Source: Escherichia phage T4. Taken from it: a stretch of 64,000 bases of DNA. The translations under genes and the position numbers were made by a program. Of the stretch, positions 12,500 to 61,567 are shown in pieces (positions within the stretch are counted from its first letter, which is position 1; every line of letters begins with the position of its first letter). The stretch lies in the sequence record OL964745.1. One strand, written 5' to 3'. The notes below the pieces were generated by a model, which did no database searches, was not told the origin of the DNA, and worked only from the letters and a program-made list of their open reading frames with translations.

Positions 12500-12900
12500 T
12501 TCACGAAGGCTAATTACGAGTTTATATCCTTCCCAACCGCATATTCTTAAAAGGATATGTATGAATTTCTACTGTTTCCATACAAAGTAATGCGGTCTCT
12601 AATTGACGAGTTAGTGCTAGCAATTGAGAAAAATTTATTAATATTCTTTTGGTTAGTTTCTGGTGTAAAAAATCCATAATTCACAAATAGATACTTTATT
12701 TTTATCAAGTTCATATTCTTTTATGATAATCATATCAGAAGCCAAAGGATGAATTTGACGATAATCGCCAACATAATTTAGAAGCTGATTTTAGAATTTG
12801 CTTCTTGAAAAGTCTGAAATTACTAATCCAACGACGAGTAAAAATATTCTCAGGGTCTTCTTTATTATTGAGATGATAAGAATTAACATCACCGAACCAA

Positions 12901-20962: not shown

Positions 20963-21154
20963 CTACATGCTGTTTACGACCTTTCTTATCAATAAAGGTA
21001 TATTCAACGAATGTTCCAATGTAGTCTTATCTACATCATGTGGACTATTAATTGGACATTTAGTGCGACAAATGCGTTCCCATTGACGAATAATTACTGC
21101 CTTATTCTTTGGGTCATATGGATGTGGATAATGTATATTCATAATAGTTCCCAA
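20963..21154 (-). CDS. Hypothetical small protein
   Basis: 63-aa ORF. Confidence 0.35.
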   Translation of the reverse strand: MGTIMNIHYPHPYDPKNKAVIIRQWERICRTKCPINSPHDVDKTTLEHSLNIPLLIRKVVNSM

Positions 21155-21571
21155 TCAACAATCACAATTTCTAATTTAGAGGAATATGTATCTAAAATCC
21201 CCTCAATAATATCCCAGTTCCCTTTACCTATGCCTGCACCAATCCTAGGCATATAGATTGTAGGTTTAATCAGTTTATTTTCACCAAACTCATTTAATTC
21301 TAACATACAATTCATTAAAGCGGAATACTCAATTTGGCCCTGGTTGAAATTGAGTATAAAGATTGAAGCAGTAAGCTTTATGAGTCCTAAAGTATTTTTC
21401 ATAGACTGAGTAAGAACCGAGTTTAGTTACATCACCCCATTCAGTCTGTAATTTATCAGCTTCCAAAATTTTAGGGAAAGCTTTGGTTAATTGACCCGCT
21501 ACGCCTGAACCCATAGTATGAAAACAATTATCCATGTGCAATATTTTTACCTTCAGCGAAAAGGGCGACAA
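21139..21571 (-). pseudogene. Macro-domain-like ORF split by a frameshift
   Basis: Two overlapping same-strand ORFs (21329-21571, 21139-21402); glycine-rich HTMGSGVAGQ and IGAGIGKGNW segments. Confidence 0.35.
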
Positions 21572-21593
21572 TATCGCCCTTGATATTTTACAA

Positions 21594-21941
21594 TCATCTA
21601 GTACTCAATCCTCGATTATAAGAATCTACCAAACGGTCAACCATTGAATGACAAGCGGCTTTATCTTTCTCCTCCGCAACTGAACATTCTAAGGTATTCC
21701 ACTTTTTAGCATATCGTTTTAACAATGTATCGTTTTTGTATCTGCTTGATTTATCTCTTTCTCCGTCTTTATATGCATATATTAATTTCTGTGCAAATTC
21801 AGCTTGGCATGCCTTATTTTTCCCACAATAATCTGCCGCAGTGCGGTTTACATATTCTCTAATTTCAGTATATGATGTATCTGCTGACGCAGAAGCAGAA
21901 AATGAAATTAATCCTATACATAAAACCAAAATTTTAGTCAT
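21594..21941 (-). CDS. vs: Secreted small protein, possibly Vs
   Basis: 115-aa ORF with signal peptide; length and position match T4 vs from memory. Confidence 0.45.
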   Translation of the reverse strand: MTKILVLCIGLISFSASASADTSYTEIREYVNRTAADYCGKNKACQAEFAQKLIYAYKDGERDKSSRYKNDTLLKRYAKKWNTLECSVAEEKDKAACHSMVDRLVDSYNRGLSTR

Positions 21942-24656: not shown

Positions 24657-25620
<964 letters not shown>

Positions 25621-25793
25621 TTTAATTTCCTGCATTCAGTGATAAAGTTATTTAAATTTTGAGCATATTTCTTTTCATCAAAAATCTTTTGCTGTCTGCG
25701 TAACCGCCATGGCATTTCAATGAACATACGCCATATTCCTGATAATACTGCTGCTGTAAAAATATTAACAAGTAGTTAAAAGAATCCAATCGC

Positions 25794-41182: not shown

Positions 41183-44100
41183 CAGTAAAAGCACCTTCAG
41201 TCACTAGTCTCAGAATTTCCAAGTTATCCGCAAATCAGGTGCAAGTACGCTGGGATGACGTTGGTGCTAATTTCTACAAAATAGTAGAAATCGCTGAGAC
41301 AAAAACAAACTCGGGGGAAAATCTCCCGAGTAATCAATATCGTTGGATTAATTTAGGATATACAGCAAATAATAGTTTCTTTTTTGATGATGCTGATCCA
41401 TTAACAACATACATTATTAGAGTAGCCACAGCTGCGCAAGATTTTGAGCAGTCTGATTGGATTTATACCGAAGAGTTTGAAACTTTTGCTACAAATGCTT
41501 ATACATTTCAAAACATGATTGAAATGCAATTAGCCAATAAATTCATTCAGGAAAAATTTACTCTTAATAATTCTGATTATGTTAATTTTAATAATGATAC
41601 TATAATGGCTGCATTGATGAATGAATCATTCCAATTCAGCCCATCGTATGTTGATGTTTCATCAATAAGTAATTTTATTATTGGTGAAAATGAGTATCAT
41701 GAAATACAAGGTTCTATTCAGCAAGTATGTAAGGATATTAACCGAGTTTATTTGATGGAATCAGAAGGAATTCTATATCTTTTTGAGCGCTATCAACCTG
41801 TAGTTAAAGTATCCAATGATAAAGGACAAACCTGGAAAGCTGTAAAGCTCTTCAATGACCGTGTAGGATATCCTTTATCTAAGACAGTATATTACCAATC
41901 TGCGAACACAACATACGTTCTAGGATACGACAAGATTTTCTATGGCCGCAAATCTACTGATGTTAGATGGTCAGCCGATGATGTCAGATTTAGTTCTCAG
42001 GATATAACATTTGCTAAACTTGGCGACCAATTACATCTAGGATTTGATGTAGAAATTTTTGCCACTTACGCGACTTTACCAGCGAATGTATACCGCATTG
42101 CAGAAGCTATTACTTGCACCGATGATTACATTTACGTTGTCGCCAGAGACAAAGTTAGATACATAAAAACGAGTAATGCACCTATAGATTCTGATCCATT
42201 ATCTCCAACATATTCGGAAAGACTTTTTGAACCTGATACCATGACTATAACCGGAAATCCTAAAGCAGTATGCTATAAAATGGATTCTATCTGTGATAAA
42301 GTTTTTGCTCTTATTATTGGTGAAGTTGAAACATTAAATGCTAATCCTAGAACATCAAAAATAATTGATTCCACTGATAAAGGAATATATGTTTTAAATC
42401 ATGACGAAAAAACATGGAAAAGAGTTTTTGGTAATACCGAAGAAGAAAGAAGACGTATTCAACCCGGATATGCGAATATGTCAACTGACGGTAAATTAGT
42501 TTCTCTGTCTTCGAGTAATTTTAAATTTTTAAGTGATAATGTTGTTAATGACCCTGAAACTGCAGCAAAATATCAGTTAATTGGCGCTGTTAAATATGAA
42601 TTTCCTCGTGAATGGTTAGCTGATAAGCATTATCATATGATGGCATTTATAGCGGATGAAACATCTGATTGGGAGACTTTTACTCCTCAACCAATGAAAT
42701 ACTACGCAGAACCATTCTTTAACTGGTCTAAAAAATCTAACACACGTTGTTGGATAAACAACTCTGATAGAGCTGTGGTAGTTTATGCTGATTTAAAATA
42801 CACTAAAGTTATAGAAAATATTCCGGAAACATCACCAGATAGATTAGTTCATGAATACTGGGATGATGGTGATTGCACTATAGTAATGCCAAATGTCAAA
42901 TTCACTGGATTTAAAAAATACGCATCAGGAATGCTTTTCTATAAAGCCTCCGGTGAAATAATTTCTTACTATGATTTTAACTATCGTGTGAGAGATACAG
43001 TAGAAATTATTTGGAAGCCAACTGAAGTATTTTTAAAAGCATTTTTACAAAACCAAGAGCATGAGACTCCTTGGTCACCAGAAGAAGAGCGTGGATTAGC
43101 TGACCCTGATTTAAGACCATTAATTGGCACAATGATGCCTGATTCTTATTTGTTACAGGATTCGAATTTTGAGGCATTTTGCGAAGCATATATTCAGTAT
43201 CTTTCTGATGGATATGGAACTCAATACAATAATTTACGAAATTTAATTCGTAACCAATATCCACGAGAAGAGCACGCATGGGAATATTTGTGGTCAGAGA
43301 TATATAAAAGAAACATTTATTTAAATGCTGATAAACGCGATGCTGTTGCGAGATTCTTTGAATCACGTAGCTATGATTTTTATTCTACTAAAGGAATTGA
43401 AGCATCATACAAGTTTCTTTTTAAAGTTCTTTATAATGAAGAAGTTGAAATTGAAATTGAATCTGGGGCTGGTACTGAATATGATATAATCGTTCAATCT
43501 GATTCTTTGACTGAAGATTTAGTAGGACAAACGATTTATACGGCAACAGGAAGATGTAATGTTACTTATATAGAAAGAAGCTATTCTAATGGTAAATTGC
43601 AATGGACCGTAACTATTCATAATCTTTTGGGACGATTAATTGCTGGTCAAGAAGTTAAAGCAGAAAGACTCCCTAGTTTTGAAGGCGAAATTATTCGTGG
43701 GGTTAAAGGAAAGGATTTGCTTCAAAACAATATAGACTATATTAATAGAAGTAGATCATACTATGTAATGAAAATTAAATCCAATTTACCTTCTTCCCGC
43801 TGGAAATCTGACGTTATTCGTTTTGTTCATCCAGTAGGATTTGGATTTATAGCAATTACCCTTTTAACAATGTTTATTAATGTTGGTTTAACTCTTAAAC
43901 ATACAGAGACTATAATTAATAAATACAAAAACTATAAATGGGATTCTGGATTGCCTACTGAATATGCCGACAGAATAGCTAAATTAACTCCAACCGGTGA
44001 AATTGAGCATGATTCAGTAACAGGCGAAGCAATTTATGAGCCTGGCCCAATGGCTGATGTAAAATATCCTCTTCCTGATGACTATAATGCTGAAAATAAT

Positions 44101-44277
44101 AATTCAATATTTCAAGGTCAATTGCCGTCTGAACGACGTAAATTAATGAGTCCTTTATTTGATGCATCTGGAACAACATTTGCGCAATTTAGAGATTTAG
44201 TTAATAAACGTCTAAAAGATAATATAGGAAATCCAAGAGACCCTGAAAATCCAACACAGGTTAAAATAGATGAATGA
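41179..44277 (+). CDS. 7: Baseplate wedge protein gp7
   Basis: 1032-aa ORF, T4 gp7 length; ATGA overlap with gp6. Confidence 0.9.
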   Translation: MTVKAPSVTSLRISKLSANQVQVRWDDVGANFYKIVEIAETKTNSGENLPSNQYRWINLGYTANNSFFFDDADPLTTYIIRVATAAQDFEQSDWIYTEEFETFATNAYTFQNMIEMQLANKFIQEKFTLNNSDYVNFNNDTIMAALMNESFQFSPSYVDVSSISNFIIGENEYHEIQGSIQQVCKDINRVYLMESEGILYLFERYQPVVKVSNDKGQTWKAVKLFNDRVGYPLSKTVYYQSANTTYVLGYDKIFYGRKSTDVRWSADDVRFSSQDITFAKLGDQLHLGFDVEIFATYATLPANVYRIAEAITCTDDYIYVVARDKVRYIKTSNAPIDSDPLSPTYSERLFEPDTMTITGNPKAVCYKMDSICDKVFALIIGEVETLNANPRTSKIIDSTDKGIYVLNHDEKTWKRVFGNTEEERRRIQPGYANMSTDGKLVSLSSSNFKFLSDNVVNDPETAAKYQLIGAVKYEFPREWLADKHYHMMAFIADETSDWETFTPQPMKYYAEPFFNWSKKSNTRCWINNSDRAVVVYADLKYTKVIENIPETSPDRLVHEYWDDGDCTIVMPNVKFTGFKKYASGMLFYKASGEIISYYDFNYRVRDTVEIIWKPTEVFLKAFLQNQEHETPWSPEEERGLADPDLRPLIGTMMPDSYLLQDSNFEAFCEAYIQYLSDGYGTQYNNLRNLIRNQYPREEHAWEYLWSEIYKRNIYLNADKRDAVARFFESRSYDFYSTKGIEASYKFLFKVLYNEEVEIEIESGAGTEYDIIVQSDSLTEDLVGQTIYTATGRCNVTYIERSYSNGKLQWTVTIHNLLGRLIAGQEVKAERLPSFEGEIIRGVKGKDLLQNNIDYINRSRSYYVMKIKSNLPSSRWKSDVIRFVHPVGFGFIAITLLTMFINVGLTLKHTETIINKYKNYKWDSGLPTEYADRIAKLTPTGEIEHDSVTGEAIYEPGPMADVKYPLPDDYNAENNNSIFQGQLPSERRKLMSPLFDASGTTFAQFRDLVNKRLKDNIGNPRDPENPTQVKIDE

Positions 44278-45274
44278 TTCAAGTGTTATCTATCGTGCGA
44301 TAGTTACTTCAAAATTTAGAACAGAAAAAATGTTGAATTTTTATAATTCAATTGGAAGTGGTCCGGATAAAAACACTATCTTTATCACATTTGGAAGATC
44401 AGAACCGTGGTCATCAAATGAAAATGAGGTGGGCTTTGCCCCACCTTATCCAACCGATTCTGTATTAGGCGTAACTGACATGTGGACGCATATGATGGGA
44501 ACAGTAAAAGTTCTTCCATCAATGCTTGATGCTGTTATTCCTCGCAGAGATTGGGGAGATACTAGATATCCGGATCCATACACATTTAGAATTAACGATA
44601 TTGTAGTGTGTAACTCAGCTCCTTACAACGCTACTGAATCAGGCGCTGGTTGGTTAGTGTATCGTTGTTTAGATGTTCCTGATACCGGAATGTGTTCAAT
44701 AGCATCTTTAACTGATAAAGATGAATGCCTTAAGTTAGGTGGAAAATGGACTCCTTCTGCTAGGTCAATGACTCCGCCTGAAGGTCGAGGAGATGCTGAA
44801 GGAACAATTGAACCCGGAGACGGGTATGTGTGGGAATATCTATTTGAGATTCCGCCTGATGTATCTATAAATAGATGCACGAATGAATATATCGTGGTTC
44901 CTTGGCCTGAGGAATTAAAAGAAGACCCGACTAGATGGGGATATGAAGATAATCTCACTTGGCAACAAGATGATTTTGGATTAATTTACCGTGTTAAGGC
45001 AAATACTATCCGTTTTAAAGCATATTTAGATTCAGTTTATTTTCCTGAAGCTGCATTGCCAGGAAATAAAGGATTTAGACAAATATCAATAATCACGAAT
45101 CCTCTTGAAGCTAAAGCTCATCCAAATGACCCAAACGTTAAAGCTGAAAAGGATTATTATGACCCAGAAGATTTAATGAGGCATTCGGGTGAAATGATTT
45201 ATATGGAAAATAGGCCACCTATTATTATGGCAATGGATCAAACAGAAGAAATCAATATTCTGTTTACATTTTAA
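44270..45274 (+). CDS. 8: Baseplate wedge protein gp8
   Basis: 334-aa ORF. Confidence 0.9.
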   Translation: MNDSSVIYRAIVTSKFRTEKMLNFYNSIGSGPDKNTIFITFGRSEPWSSNENEVGFAPPYPTDSVLGVTDMWTHMMGTVKVLPSMLDAVIPRRDWGDTRYPDPYTFRINDIVVCNSAPYNATESGAGWLVYRCLDVPDTGMCSIASLTDKDECLKLGGKWTPSARSMTPPEGRGDAEGTIEPGDGYVWEYLFEIPPDVSINRCTNEYIVVPWPEELKEDPTRWGYEDNLTWQQDDFGLIYRVKANTIRFKAYLDSVYFPEAALPGNKGFRQISIITNPLEAKAHPNDPNVKAEKDYYDPEDLMRHSGEMIYMENRPPIIMAMDQTEEINILFTF

Positions 45275-48671: not shown

Positions 48672-50251
48672 GTAATAATACATATCAACACGTTTCTAAT
48701 GAATCTCGTTATGTAAAATTTGATCCTACCGATACGAATTTTCCACCGGAGATTACTGATGTTCAGGCTGCTATAGCAGCCATTTCTCCTGCTGGAGTAA
48801 ATGGAGTTCCTGATGCATCGTCAACAACAAAGGGAATTCTATTTCTTGCCACTGAACAGGAAGTTATAGATGGAACTAATAATACCAAAGCAGTTACACC
48901 AGCAACGTTGGCAACAAGATTATCTTATCCAAATGCAACTGAAACTGTTTACGGATTAACAAGATATTCAACCAATGATGAAGCCATTGCCGGAGTTAAT
49001 AATGAATCTTCTATAACTCCAGCTAAATTTACTGTCGCCCTTAATAATGCGTTTGAAACGCGAGTTTCAACTGAATCCTCAAATGGTGTTATTAAAATTT
49101 CATCTCTACCGCAAGCATTAGCTGGTGCAGATGATACTACTGCAATGACTCCATTAAAAACACAGCAGTTAGCTATTAAATTAATTGCGCAAATTGCTCC
49201 TTCTGAAACCACAGCTACCGAATCGGACCAAGGTGTTGTTCAATTAGCAACAGTAGCGCAGGTTCGTCAGGGAACTTTAAGAGAAGGCTATGCAATTTCT
49301 CCTTATACGTTTATGAATTCATCTGCTACTGAAGAATATAAAGGCGTAATTAAATTAGGAACACAATCAGAAGTTAACTCGAATAATGCTTCTGTTGCGG
49401 TTACTGGCGCAACTCTTAATGGTCGTGGTTCTACGACGTCAATGAGAGGCGTAGTTAAATTAACTACAACCGCCGGTTCACAGAGTGGAGGCGATGCTTC
49501 ATCAGCCTTAGCTTGGAATGCTGACGTTATCCACCAAAGAGGTGGTCAAATTATCTATGGAACACTCCGCATTGAAGACACATTTACAATAGCTAATGGT
49601 GGAGCAAATATTACGGGTACCGTCAGAATGACTGGCGGTTATATTCAAGGTAACCGCATCGTAACACAAAATGAAATTGATAGAACTATTCCTGTCGGAG
49701 CTATTATGATGTGGGCCGCTGATAGTCTTCCTAGTGATGCTTGGCGCTTCTGCCATGGTGGAACTGTTTCAGCGTCAGATTGTCCATTATATGCTTCTAG
49801 AATTGGAACAAGATATGGCGGAAACCCATCAAATCCTGGATTGCCTGACATGCGTGGTCTTTTTGTTCGTGGTTCTGGTCGTGGTTCTCACTTAACAAAT
49901 CCAAATGTTAATGGTAATGACCAATTTGGTAAACCTAGATTAGGTGTAGGTTGTACCGGTGGATATGTTGGTGAAGTACAGAAACAACAGATGTCTTATC
50001 ATAAACATGCTGGCGGATTTGGTGAGTATAATGATTCTGGGGCATTCGGTAATACCCGTAGATCAAATTTTGTTGGTACACGTAAAGGACTTGACTGGGA
50101 TAACCGTTCATACTTCACCAATGACGGATATGAAATTGACCCAGAATCACAACGAAATTCCAAATATACATTAAATCGTCCTGAATTAATTGGAAATGAA
50201 ACACGTCCATGGAACATTTCTTTAAACTACATAATTAAGGTAAAAGAATGA
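48668..50251 (+). CDS. 12: Short tail fibre protein gp12
   Basis: 527-aa ORF. Confidence 0.9.
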
Positions 50252-51711
50252 CAGATATTGTACTGAATGACTTACCATTCGTTGACGGCCCTCCTGCAGA
50301 GGGCCAGAGCCGCATTTCCTGGATTAAAAACGGCGAAGAAATATTAGGAGCTGACACACAGTATGGAAGTGAAGGCTCAATGAATAGACCTACGGTTTCT
50401 GTACTAAGAAATGTTGAAGTTCTTGATAAAAACATTGGAATACTTAAAACATCTTTAGAAACCGCAAATAGTGATATTAAAACAATTCAGGGCATCTTAG
50501 ATGTATCTGGTGATATTGAAGCTTTGGCCCAAATAGGTATCAATAAAAAGGATATTTCTGACCTCAAAACGCTAACCAGTGAACACACAGAAATATTAAA
50601 TGGAACTAATAATACGGTTGACAGTATTCTTGCCGATATTGGTCCATTTAACGCCGAGGCCAACTCTGTATACAGAACGATCAGAAATGATTTACTGTGG
50701 ATAAAGCGTGAACTTGGACAATACACTGGTCAAGATATTAATGGTCTTCCTGTTGTAGGAAATCCTAGTAGTGGAATGAAGCATCGCATTATTAATAATA
50801 CTGATGTCATCACTTCGCAGGGAATACGTTTAAGCAAATTAGAAACAAAATTTATTGAATCTGATGTAGGTTCTTTGACCATTGAAGTTGGTAATCTTCG
50901 TGAAGAGCTTGGACCGAAACCACCATCATTTTCACAGAACGTTTATAGTCGTTTAAATGAAATTGACACTAAACAGACAACAGTTGAGTCTGACATTAGT
51001 GCTATTAAGACCTCAATAGGATATCCAGGAAATAATTCGATTATCACGAGTGTTAATACAAACACTGATAATATTGCATCTATTAATTTAGAGCTAAATC
51101 AAAGTGGAGGTATTAAACAGCGTTTAACCGTTATTGAAACTTCCATTGGTTCAGATGATATTCCTTCGAGTATTAAAGGTCAAATCAAAGATAATACAAC
51201 TTCAATCGAATCTCTAAATGGAATCGTCGGTGAAAACACTTCATCTGGCTTAAGAGCGAATGTTTCATGGTTAAACCAAATTGTTGGAACTGATTCTAGC
51301 GGTGGACAACCTTCTCCTCCTGGGTCTCTTTTAAACCGAGTTTCTACAATTGAAACTTCTGTTTCAGGCTTGAATAACGATGTTCAAAACCTACAAGTAG
51401 AGATTGGTAATAACAGCACAGGAATTAAAGGGCAAGTTGTAGCGTTAAATACTTTAGTAAATGGAACTAATCCAAACGGTTCAACTGTTGAAGAGCGCGG
51501 ATTAACCAATTCAATAAAAGCTAACGAAACTAACATTGCATCAGTTACACAAGAAGTGAATACAGCTAAAGGCAATATATCTTCTTTACAAGGTGATGTT
51601 CAAGCTCTCCAAGAAGCCGGTTATATTCCTGAAGCTCCAAGAGATGGGCAAGCTTACGTTCGTAAAGATGGCGAATGGGTATTGCTTTCTACCTTTTTAT
51701 CACCAGCATAA
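50248..51711 (+). CDS. wac: Fibritin (whisker) Wac
   Basis: 487-aa ORF, coiled-coil heptad segments, C-terminal foldon-like [27 protein letters not shown]. Confidence 0.9.
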
Positions 51712-53485: not shown

Positions 53486-56626
<3,141 letters not shown>

Positions 56627-56654
56627 TATTAAAGCATATTAAAGAGGATTAAAA

Positions 56655-58634
56655 ATGACTTTATTATCTCCGGGCATTGAGCTCAAAGAAACTACGGTTC
56701 AAAGCACCGTAGTTAATAACTCTACTGGTACAGCAGCTTTGGCCGGTAAATTCCAGTGGGGTCCTGCTTTTCAGATTAAACAGGTTACAAATGAAGTAGA
56801 TTTAGTTAATACTTTTGGTCAACCAACCGCTGAAACTGCTGACTATTTTATGTCTGCGATGAATTTCTTGCAGTACGGAAATGACTTACGAGTAGTTCGT
56901 GCTGTTGATAGAGATACCGCTAAAAACTCATCGCCAATTGCTGGTAATATTGAATACACAATTTCTACCCCAGGTAGTAGCTATGCGGTTGGAGATAAAA
57001 TCACGGTCAAATATGTTTCAGATGATATTGAAACTGAAGGTAAAATTACTGAAGTAGACGCAGATGGAAAAATTAAGAAAATTAATATTCCTACTGCAAA
57101 AATTATCGCTAAAGCGAAAGAAGTCGGTGAATATCCAACACTAGGTTCTAACTGGACTGCGGAAATTTCTTCATCTTCCTCTGGTTTAGCTGCAGTAATA
57201 ACTCTTGGAAAAATTATTACTGATTCTGGTATTTTATTAGCTGAAATTGAAAATGCTGAAGCTGCTATGACAGCGGTTGACTTTCAAGCAAATCTTAAAA
57301 AATATGGAATTCCAGGAGTAGTAGCGCTTTATCCAGGCGAATTAGGCGATAAAATTGAAATTGAAATCGTATCTAAAGCTGACTATGCAAAAGGAGCTTC
57401 TGCATTACTCCCAATTTATCCAGGTGGTGGTACTCGTGCATCTACTGCTAAAGCAGTGTTTGGATATGGACCGCAAACTGATTCACAGTACGCTATTATA
57501 GTTCGTCGTAATGATGCTATTGTTCAAAGCGTTGTTCTTTCAACTAAGCGTGGTGAAAAAGATATTTACGATAGTAACATCTATATCGATGACTTTTTCG
57601 CAAAAGGTGGTTCAGAATATATTTTTGCAACTGCACAAAACTGGCCAGAAGGCTTCTCTGGAATTTTAACTCTGTCTGGTGGATTATCATCAAATGCTGA
57701 AGTAACAGCAGGAGATTTGATGGAAGCTTGGGACTTCTTTGCTGACCGTGAATCTGTTGACGTTCAACTGTTTATTGCAGGTTCTTGTGCCGGTGAATCT
57801 TTAGAAACAGCATCTACTGTCCAAAAACACGTCGTTTCAATTGGGGATGCTCGCCAAAATTGCTTAGTATTGTGCTCTCCTCCGCGTGAAACTGTAGTTG
57901 GAATTCCTGTAACCCGTGCTGTTGATAACTTAGTCAATTGGAGAACTGCGGCAGGTTCATACACTGATAATAACTTTAATATCAGTTCAACCTATGCAGC
58001 AATTGATGGTAACTATAAGTATCAGTATGACAAATATAATGATGTGAATCGTTGGGTTCCATTAGCAGCTGATATTGCTGGTTTATGCGCAAGAACTGAT
58101 AACGTATCTCAGACTTGGATGTCTCCAGCTGGTTATAATCGTGGTCAGATTCTTAACGTTATTAAACTTGCTATTGAAACTCGCCAGGCTCAGCGCGACC
58201 GTTTATACCAAGAAGCTATCAACCCGGTAACCGGTACAGGTGGTGATGGTTACGTATTGTATGGTGATAAAACAGCTACTTCTGTTCCTTCTCCATTTGA
58301 TCGTATTAACGTTCGTCGTCTGTTTAATATGTTGAAAACGAATATCGGACGTAGTTCAAAATATCGTTTGTTCGAATTAAACAACGCGTTTACTCGTTCA
58401 TCATTCCGCACAGAAACTGCCCAGTACTTACAGGGAATTAAAGCTCTCGGTGGAATTTATGAATATCGTGTAGTTTGCGATACAACAAATAACACTCCGT
58501 CAGTAATTGATAGAAATGAGTTTGTTGCAACATTCTACATCCAACCGGCTAGAAGCATTAACTACATTACCTTAAACTTCGTAGCAACTGCTACTGGTGC
58601 AGATTTCGATGAGTTAACTGGTCTTGCTGGTTAA
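56655..58634 (+). CDS. 18: Tail sheath protein gp18
   Basis: 659-aa ORF. Confidence 0.95.
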   Translation: MTLLSPGIELKETTVQSTVVNNSTGTAALAGKFQWGPAFQIKQVTNEVDLVNTFGQPTAETADYFMSAMNFLQYGNDLRVVRAVDRDTAKNSSPIAGNIEYTISTPGSSYAVGDKITVKYVSDDIETEGKITEVDADGKIKKINIPTAKIIAKAKEVGEYPTLGSNWTAEISSSSSGLAAVITLGKIITDSGILLAEIENAEAAMTAVDFQANLKKYGIPGVVALYPGELGDKIEIEIVSKADYAKGASALLPIYPGGGTRASTAKAVFGYGPQTDSQYAIIVRRNDAIVQSVVLSTKRGEKDIYDSNIYIDDFFAKGGSEYIFATAQNWPEGFSGILTLSGGLSSNAEVTAGDLMEAWDFFADRESVDVQLFIAGSCAGESLETASTVQKHVVSIGDARQNCLVLCSPPRETVVGIPVTRAVDNLVNWRTAAGSYTDNNFNISSTYAAIDGNYKYQYDKYNDVNRWVPLAADIAGLCARTDNVSQTWMSPAGYNRGQILNVIKLAIETRQAQRDRLYQEAINPVTGTGGDGYVLYGDKTATSVPSPFDRINVRRLFNMLKTNIGRSSKYRLFELNNAFTRSSFRTETAQYLQGIKALGGIYEYRVVCDTTNNTPSVIDRNEFVATFYIQPARSINYITLNFVATATGADFDELTGLAG

Positions 58635-60900: not shown

Positions 60901-61142
60901 TGGAAGGTTTAATTGAAGCTATTAAATCAAACGACCTCGTAGCCGCTCGTAAATTATTTGCTGAAGCCATGGCTGCAAGAACGATTGATTTAATTAAAGA
61001 AGAAAAAATCGCTATCGCTCGCAATTTCTTAATCGAAGGTGAAGAACCTGAAGACGAGGATGAAGATGAAGATGACGAAGATAGTGATGATAAAGACGAC
61101 AAAAAAGACGAAGACTCTGACGAAGACGAGGATGATGAATAA
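60900..61142 (+). CDS. 67: Prohead core protein gp67
   Basis: 80-aa ORF with Asp/Glu-rich C-terminal tail; ATGA overlaps both sides. Confidence 0.85.
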
Positions 61143-61567
61143 TGCTTCTGATCCCTGAAACTCATGAATTAGTTCTCGAGAATGTCGAAGCACTTATTCC
61201 TGAAGCACAGGGTCGCTTTGACGAATTGTCTTCTGCTTTAAATAAAGACGATATAAATACAATTGTCGAGAATATGCTTGATGATGAAACTGATTTAGCG
61301 GTTGCATTAGCTTCTATTAATGAAAATATGCCGTTAAATGAATTCATCGTTAAACATGTTTCTGCCCGTGGTGAAATTACTCGCACTAAAGACCGCAAAA
61401 CGCGTGAACGAAATGCATTTCAAACCACTGGGCTGTCTAAAGCAAAACGTAGACAAATTGCTCGTAAAGCTACCAAAACGAAGATTGCCAATCCAGCAGG
61501 TCAATCTCGTGCTCAGCGTAAGCGTAAAAAAGCTCTTAAACGCCGTAAAGCATTAGGATTAAGCTAA
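61142..61567 (+). CDS. 68: Prohead core protein gp68
   Basis: 141-aa ORF with basic C-terminus. Confidence 0.85.

Follow-up and report, generated by a model that had tools for sequence, protein, structure and literature searches.

Two overlapping reading frames in a bacteriophage T4 clone are fragments of tk.4 (adfM), a predicted macrodomain gene broken by three 2-bp deletions

Two ORFs on the minus strand of the phage T4 record OL964745.1 lie in different frames, overlap by 74 nt (21329-21402) and each carry a glycine-rich segment, which raises the question whether they are two genes or the remains of a single broken one, and what the intact gene would do. Positions refer to the window, the whole stretch of 64,000 nt that was analysed, unless T4 coordinates (NC_000866.4) are indicated. 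The original prediction, made from the sequence alone, was that of a macro-domain-like ORF split by a single frameshift. Both ORFs were recovered with the frames and overlap described there, fragment A at 21329-21571 (80 aa, TTG start) and fragment B at 21139-21402 (87 aa). The glycine-rich segments that had drawn attention, HTMGSGVAGQLTKAFP in fragment A (21473-21520) and IYMPRIGAGIGKGNWDIIEGIL in fragment B (21193-21258), are indeed present and correspond to the two conserved ADP-ribose-binding loops of the family, both of which are still readable in the window.

A 521-nt query around the two ORFs matched 586 phage records. The orthologous locus in the T4 genome lies between vs and tk.3, where NC_000866.4 carries tk.4 as one 468-nt ORF of 155 aa (60922-61389), annotated as 'phosphatase; A1pp motif'; the annotation in many relatives is 'macro domain protein'. 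The gene order vs - tk.4 - tk.3 - tk.2 - tk.1 - tk around T4 Tk.4/AdfM (NP_049723.1) is the same in the window. Nucleotide identity of the window locus to T4 tk.4 is 98.3% and the differences are deletions without exception, and because of these two properties a chance resemblance is excluded. A 530-nt version of the stretch, at most 98.3% identical, was found in all T4, T2 and related records among the matches listed. In the window tk.4 measures 459 nt compared to 468 nt in T4 and runs from its native ATG (21595-21597) to a TGA stop (21139-21141), past position 21571 at which the locus had originally been taken to end. The ATG overlaps the stop codon of the upstream gene vs (ATGA; vs ORF at 21594-21941), and in the wild type translation of tk.4 would be coupled to that of vs. 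The features of the locus are as follows.

21139-21597, minus strand: tk.4/adfM pseudogene, entire remnant, aligning to NC_000866.4 60922-61389
21553-21597, minus strand: all that can be translated from the native start, MIVKYQGRYCRPFR, followed by a stop
21329-21571, minus strand: ORF fragment A, residues 14-80 being Tk.4 residues 24-90
21139-21402, minus strand: ORF fragment B, residues 25-87 being Tk.4 residues 92-155
20963-21154, minus strand: tk.3, the downstream neighbour, with a frameshifting 1-bp deletion at 21027
21583-21586: frameshift 1, 2-bp deletion ATATAT>ATAT (T4 61373) at codon 6, also in MZ375356.1
21529-21530: frameshift 2, a 2-bp deletion (T4 61318-61319) whose junction falls within the conserved HGCNC motif, also in MZ375356.1
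21331-21332: frameshift 3, 2-bp deletion, AAAA>AA on the plus strand (T4 61117), at Asn90/Phe91, also in MZ375356.1
21146-21147: junction of an in-frame 3-bp deletion (T4 60930-60932) that removes Pro153

Alignment to wild-type T4 showed three frameshifting 2-bp deletions in the window copy, so the single frameshift of the original prediction was an undercount, and the shift that parts fragments A and B, expected near 21390, is the last of the three at 21331/21332. Compared to T4 Tk.4/AdfM, these deletions destroy the frame and Pro153 is gone; the 3-bp deletion turns the C-terminus ...WEPLL into ...WELL and retains the start of tk.3. Six-frame translation finds the tk.4 coding sequence spread over three frames, the native frame giving MIVKY from its ATG at 21597, the second frame IKGDIVALFAEGKNIAHG, the third NCFHTMGSG...QPGPN and the first frame again EYSALM...VDWELL. 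Loop 1 (HTMGSGVAGQ, 21473-21520) is held by fragment A, the initial 13 codons of which are out of frame, and loop 2 (PRIGAGIGKGNW, within 21193-21258) by fragment B, the initial 23 codons of which are out of frame. An intact translatable adfM ORF is absent from the window, as the native ATG opens only 14 codons before a stop. The two ORFs are fragments of the known T4 gene tk.4 (adfM), broken by three 2-bp deletions, and the window copy is an adfM pseudogene from which no functional macrodomain product is expected. As a side observation, a Tk.4 homologue from an ENA metagenome (P0012, 95 aa) is independently truncated and loses its frame just after ...FQPG, a few nucleotides from the position of frameshift 3 (21331/21332); GGGCCAAATTTT may be a slippage-prone spot.

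The assignment to the macrodomain superfamily was examined with profiles and with a structure model. Intact T4 Tk.4 scored 27.7 bits on the Pfam Macro profile (PF01661, gathering threshold 22 bits), and the frame-corrected concatenation of the window sequence, the profile check proposed originally, also passed with 25.6 bits, which upholds the macro-domain call. Neither fragment reached this level alone, fragment A scoring 13.4 bits on PF01661, below the cut-off, and fragment B giving a weak ThsA_Macro match without a significant Macro hit. PHROG 335 matched Tk.4 at 1.3e-65. Sequence matches of Tk.4 in the PDB were BT1257 (1.3e-9), Poa1p, SCO6735, DarG and TARG1, and all of them became stronger with a profile of the 57-sequence family. 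Structure prediction was performed on the homologue P0001 (98% identity to T4 Tk.4) and describes that protein, not the broken gene of the window or the concatenation. The AlphaFold2 model (57-sequence alignment) had a pLDDT of 96.3 and a pTM of 0.91. Foldseek searches of the PDB with this model returned the macrodomains of TARG1, Poa1p, BT1257 and DarG at TM 0.7-0.8, and the best 16 PDB matches were natural macrodomains in all 16 cases. A failure to predict a macro fold had been named beforehand as grounds for giving up the call; what was obtained is a confident macro fold with macrodomains as its best PDB matches. Residues G33, A35, P119, I121, G122 and G124 are invariant among the 57 homologues and all lie in the ADP-ribose-binding loops. 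Judged by sequence and model, intact Tk.4 is a predicted macrodomain with ADP-ribose-binding loops. Tk.4 homologues were found in 2846 of 50,697 phage records, and a protein at least 99% identical to Tk.4 is encoded in 157 phage records.

The residues of the predicted active site indicate the class to which Tk.4 belongs. After verification of the TARG1 sequence, alignments by hhalign and hmmsearch placed Gln84 of Tk.4, invariant across the 57 homologues, opposite the catalytic K84 of TARG1. A catalytic lysine of the TARG1/DarG type is absent from Tk.4 and its 57 homologues, Gln84 taking its place, and Asp125 of the TARG1 Lys/Asp dyad corresponds to Gly126 in T4 Tk.4 and to Ala in the family consensus. 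TARG1 K84 and DarG K80 have been equated with Q85 of SCO6735, and the SCO6735 Q85A substitution abolishes hydrolysis of thymidine-ADP-ribose (PMC9411070). The catalytic equivalence of Tk.4 and SCO6735 is therefore transitive, through the TARG1 alignment and this published comparison. Within the ALC1 class, sequence comparison best places Tk.4 in the Gln-type branch (SCO6735/BT1257-like) and not in the Lys-type branch.

SCO6735 of Streptomyces coelicolor (PDB 5e3b) was matched at E=3.3e-4 by the single sequence and at E=3.1e-14 by the family profile (positions 3-151). This stand-alone macrodomain cleaves thymidine-linked ADP-ribose, protects against DarT and has both protein and DNA substrates (PMC9411070). 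By analogy with this enzyme, in which Gln likewise replaces the catalytic Lys of TARG1 and DarG, Tk.4 may hydrolyse the thymidine linkage; SCO6735 differs from Tk.4 in being a bacterial protein encoded by a DNA-damage-induced gene and in having a longer mobile loop. The best PDB sequence match, BT1257 of Bacteroides (PDB 2fg1/2afc; E=1.3e-9, profile 3.9e-18), has the N...Q motif and PRIGxGxxGGxW loop in common with Tk.4, and no function has been assigned to it. The DarG macrodomain (PDB 5m3e, 5m3i) and human TARG1 (PDB 4j5r) share the predicted fold of Tk.4 (TM 0.73-0.80) and its class of ADP-ribose-binding loops, and the DarT2 modification that DarG reverses is also the proposed target of AdfM. 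Tk.4 differs from them by Gln84 in place of Lys80/Lys84 and by Gly126 in place of TARG1 Asp125, and it lacks the C-terminal DarT-binding domain of DarG. The 155-aa Tk.4 falls outside the DarG antitoxins as delimited by NCBIfam NF048014, scoring 30.3 bits against a cut-off of 250 and covering the macro part only (model positions 2-146 of 338). Yeast Poa1p (PDB 6lfq) is an ADP-ribose-1''-phosphate phosphatase and is the origin of the old 'phosphatase' annotation of tk.4.

The function of intact tk.4 has been addressed in the literature. DarT2 ADP-ribosylates thymidine in ssDNA, and the DarG macrodomain reverses this modification (PMC11825919, PMC13309987). An adfA adfN double mutant of T4 remains resistant to DarTG2, from which a further anti-DarTG factor of T4 was predicted (PMC11825919). 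In a T4 transposon screen on a DarTG2 host tk.4 was the sole gene depleted and was named adfM, and a clean tk.4 knockout sensitised T4 to DarTG2 (bioRxiv 10.1101/2025.11.20.689424). A macrodomain of phage PhiKZ, likewise named AdfM, strips ADP-ribose from DarT2-modified DNA in vitro (PMC13309987). The anti-DarTG2 phenotype of intact tk.4 is thus taken from published work, and from these genetics and the homologues we infer that Tk.4 acts by de-ADP-ribosylation of DNA. Intact Tk.4 would remove the ADP-ribose placed by DarT2 on thymidines of single-stranded phage DNA, using a Gln-type active site (H22/N25/Q84) like that of Streptomyces SCO6735, and phage replication would then continue. The clone represented by the window should, by the same reasoning, be sensitive to DarTG2.

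The closest relative of the broken locus is a laboratory phage. With the 521-nt query, MZ375356.1 ('Mutant Escherichia phage T4 clone T4_583L') was the sole record at least 99% identical; this best match was 99.0% identical, and the searched phage collection held no identical record. T4_583L is the smallest T4 mutant made by CiPGr, a CRISPR/Cas9 genome-reduction approach (PMC9825161). Of the 93 differences of the window from T4, 81 were common to T4_583L, including the breakpoints of the large deletions and the three frameshifting tk.4 deletions, which are identical in the two clones. T4_583L carries more lesions than the window, as its tk.3/tk.4 region has an additional five small deletions and deletions in other parts are larger. 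Near 21146/21147 it carries a different 2-bp deletion, 6 bp away, and at 21027, where the 1-bp deletion of the window alters the C-terminal third of tk.3, it has a 3-bp deletion. Four kb-scale deletions were found when the window was compared with T4 38500-105882.

Window junction 8057: T4 42801-44847 deleted (nrdG-mobC-nrdD/I-TevII)
Window junction 12154/12155: T4 48954-49860 deleted (nrdC.3)
Window junction 17827/17828: T4 55553-57600 deleted (nrdC.11-mobD-mobD.1)
Window junction 22996/22997: T4 62788-64843 deleted (vs.3-vs.8)

All four fall within regions on the list of unplanned large deletions in the CiPGr paper, namely nrdG-D, nrdC.1-6, nrdC.11-mobD.3 and vs.3-denV (PMC9825161). By its sequence the window looks like a sister or earlier clone of the T4_583L laboratory lineage, since T4_583L carries more lesions, and the mutations in common, and not an identical record, are the basis for assigning it to the CiPGr lineage. 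The source of this lineage would be iterative CRISPR/Cas9 genome reduction of T4, a procedure in which deletions build up in dispensable genes, some of them designed, others unplanned and kb-scale, and many of only 1-2 bases; the loss of tk.4 would be tolerated, as the host, E. coli MG1655, presumably imposes no selection for the gene. At 8 of the 12 indel sites specific to the window, T4_583L has another indel either at that site or right next to it. Differing indels were seen at T4 42377, 48613, 50246-50273, 50397, 60809 and 60930 (window 7635, 11819, 12541-12566, 12685, 21027 and 21147), and the indel differences between the two clones suggest repeated hits at particular sites and not random drift.

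Differences of another kind were also observed. At 50036/50039 (gene 12), 57097/57106 and 58433/58438 (gene 18), a +1 and a -1 indel lie within a few bases of each other and compensate, and further essential genes contain clusters of substitutions. T4_583L has the same indel pair in gene 12 and every one of the 39 substitutions within the region compared, which did not extend to gene 18. These pairs and substitutions are probably strain differences or errors of the old reference, not products of mutagenesis.

The small deletions of the window follow a distinct pattern. They number 42 (34 of two bases, seven of three and one of four), lie nearly all in A/T micro-repeats (ATAT, TATA, AAA, TTT) and span positions 3921-38798, the left 60% of the window. 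They cluster in the dispensable genes nrdC.1/.2/.4, rI.1, tk.3, tk.4, nudE, segB, trna.2/.3, 5.1, segC and 5.3. The 30.4 kb of essential genes received none of the 42, although 46% of comparable A/T-repeat sites lie there (P about 6e-12). The CiPGr authors, who detected such deletions in population reads, propose CRISPR-escape mutations as their source (PMC9825161). Of the four lesions in tk.4, three fall on a possible NGG cut site or PAM. For the small deletions as a whole no enrichment at potential SpCas9 (NGG) cut sites was found (11 of 42 against 22% expected, P=0.33), and this lack of enrichment leaves a 'CRISPR escape' origin unproven. The recurrent 2-bp deletions in A/T repeats may stem from a mutational process peculiar to T4 under Cas9 pressure and not from simple protospacer escape. 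Beside tk.4, the gene nudE, encoding a Nudix hydrolase active on ADP-ribose, is broken by four small deletions.

About 25189-25640: nudE
25234, 25439, 25486 and 25569: small deletions in nudE

The clone thus lacks two ADP-ribose-processing genes, tk.4 and nudE.

Taken together, it is highly probable that tk.4/adfM encodes in wild-type T4 a macrodomain that counters DarT2, and that the window copy is dead through laboratory-made lesions of the CiPGr lineage. Other origins of the broken frame were weighed against this reading. It is very improbable that the phage itself has an intact tk.4 and that the frameshifts arose in sequencing or assembly. The lesions do all fall within A/T micro-repeats (ATATAT, AAAA), where indels can be miscalled, and the only other record with them comes from the same laboratory pipeline. 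Errors, however, would not spare essential genes as the 42 deletions do; the deletions were also seen in the population reads of the CiPGr authors (PMC9825161), the sister clones differ stepwise at the same sites, and the three 2-bp deletions recur in the independently deposited MZ375356.1. Resequencing is therefore unlikely to remove the tk.4 frameshifts. Natural decay of tk.4 in a wild T4-like phage would have a precedent in truncated Tk.4 homologues such as P0012 (95 aa) and P0120, and yet it is extremely improbable given the 81 of 93 differences and the breakpoints held in common with the engineered T4_583L, the 157 records that encode Tk.4 almost unchanged, and the full-length 530-bp stretch in the other T4, T2 and related records among the matches listed. 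Almost no credence can be given to the view that the ORFs are independent genes or are linked by programmed ribosomal frameshifting. Their overlap on the same strand could be read that way, but in wild-type T4, as in hundreds of relatives, the locus is a single unbroken ORF of 155 aa, neither fragment alone passes the Macro threshold, and frameshifting would require three shifts with a stop 9 codons after the first. Programmed frameshifting, independent genes and natural pseudogenisation were rejected on the single wild-type ORF, the three shifts with an early stop and the kinship with T4_583L.

A further alternative leaves the laboratory origin of the lesions untouched and concerns the substrate of intact Tk.4, which would reverse or trim the ADP-ribosylation made by the T4 enzymes Alt, ModA and ModB rather than that of a host toxin. 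We regard this as quite improbable. T4 does encode such transferases, and the annotation of the reference genome includes alt. The residue modified by Alt and Mod is arginine, however, and macrodomains are not known to cleave this linkage. In addition, tk.4 is dispensable on hosts lacking DarTG2, and DarTG2 sensitivity is the sole reported tk.4 phenotype. The action of the related SCO6735 on protein as well as DNA substrates (PMC9411070) speaks for the alternative. The suggestion in the original prediction that the gene product is a partner of Alt, ModA and ModB found no support, the published genetics giving instead a counter-defence against DarT2 (bioRxiv 10.1101/2025.11.20.689424). It is unlikely, too, that Tk.4/AdfM has two substrates, the thymidine-ADP-ribose of DarT2 and the ADP-ribose or RNA adducts formed by Alt, ModA and ModB.

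Under the preferred reading, that of a DarT2-countering macrodomain gene lost in the laboratory, the discovery value of the window copy is low, as the gene, the fold of its product and the counter-defence phenotype have all been described before and the frameshifts come from a published genome-reduction experiment. The window is an engineered, mutation-laden T4, and any other 'split gene', 'pseudogene' or 'novel small ORF' in it should be checked against wild-type T4. For the protein family, the Gln-type placement points to N25 and Q84 as residues for mutation. If Tk.4/AdfM did act on both kinds of substrate, the clone, having lost tk.4 and nudE, would be a double null in which this could be tested.
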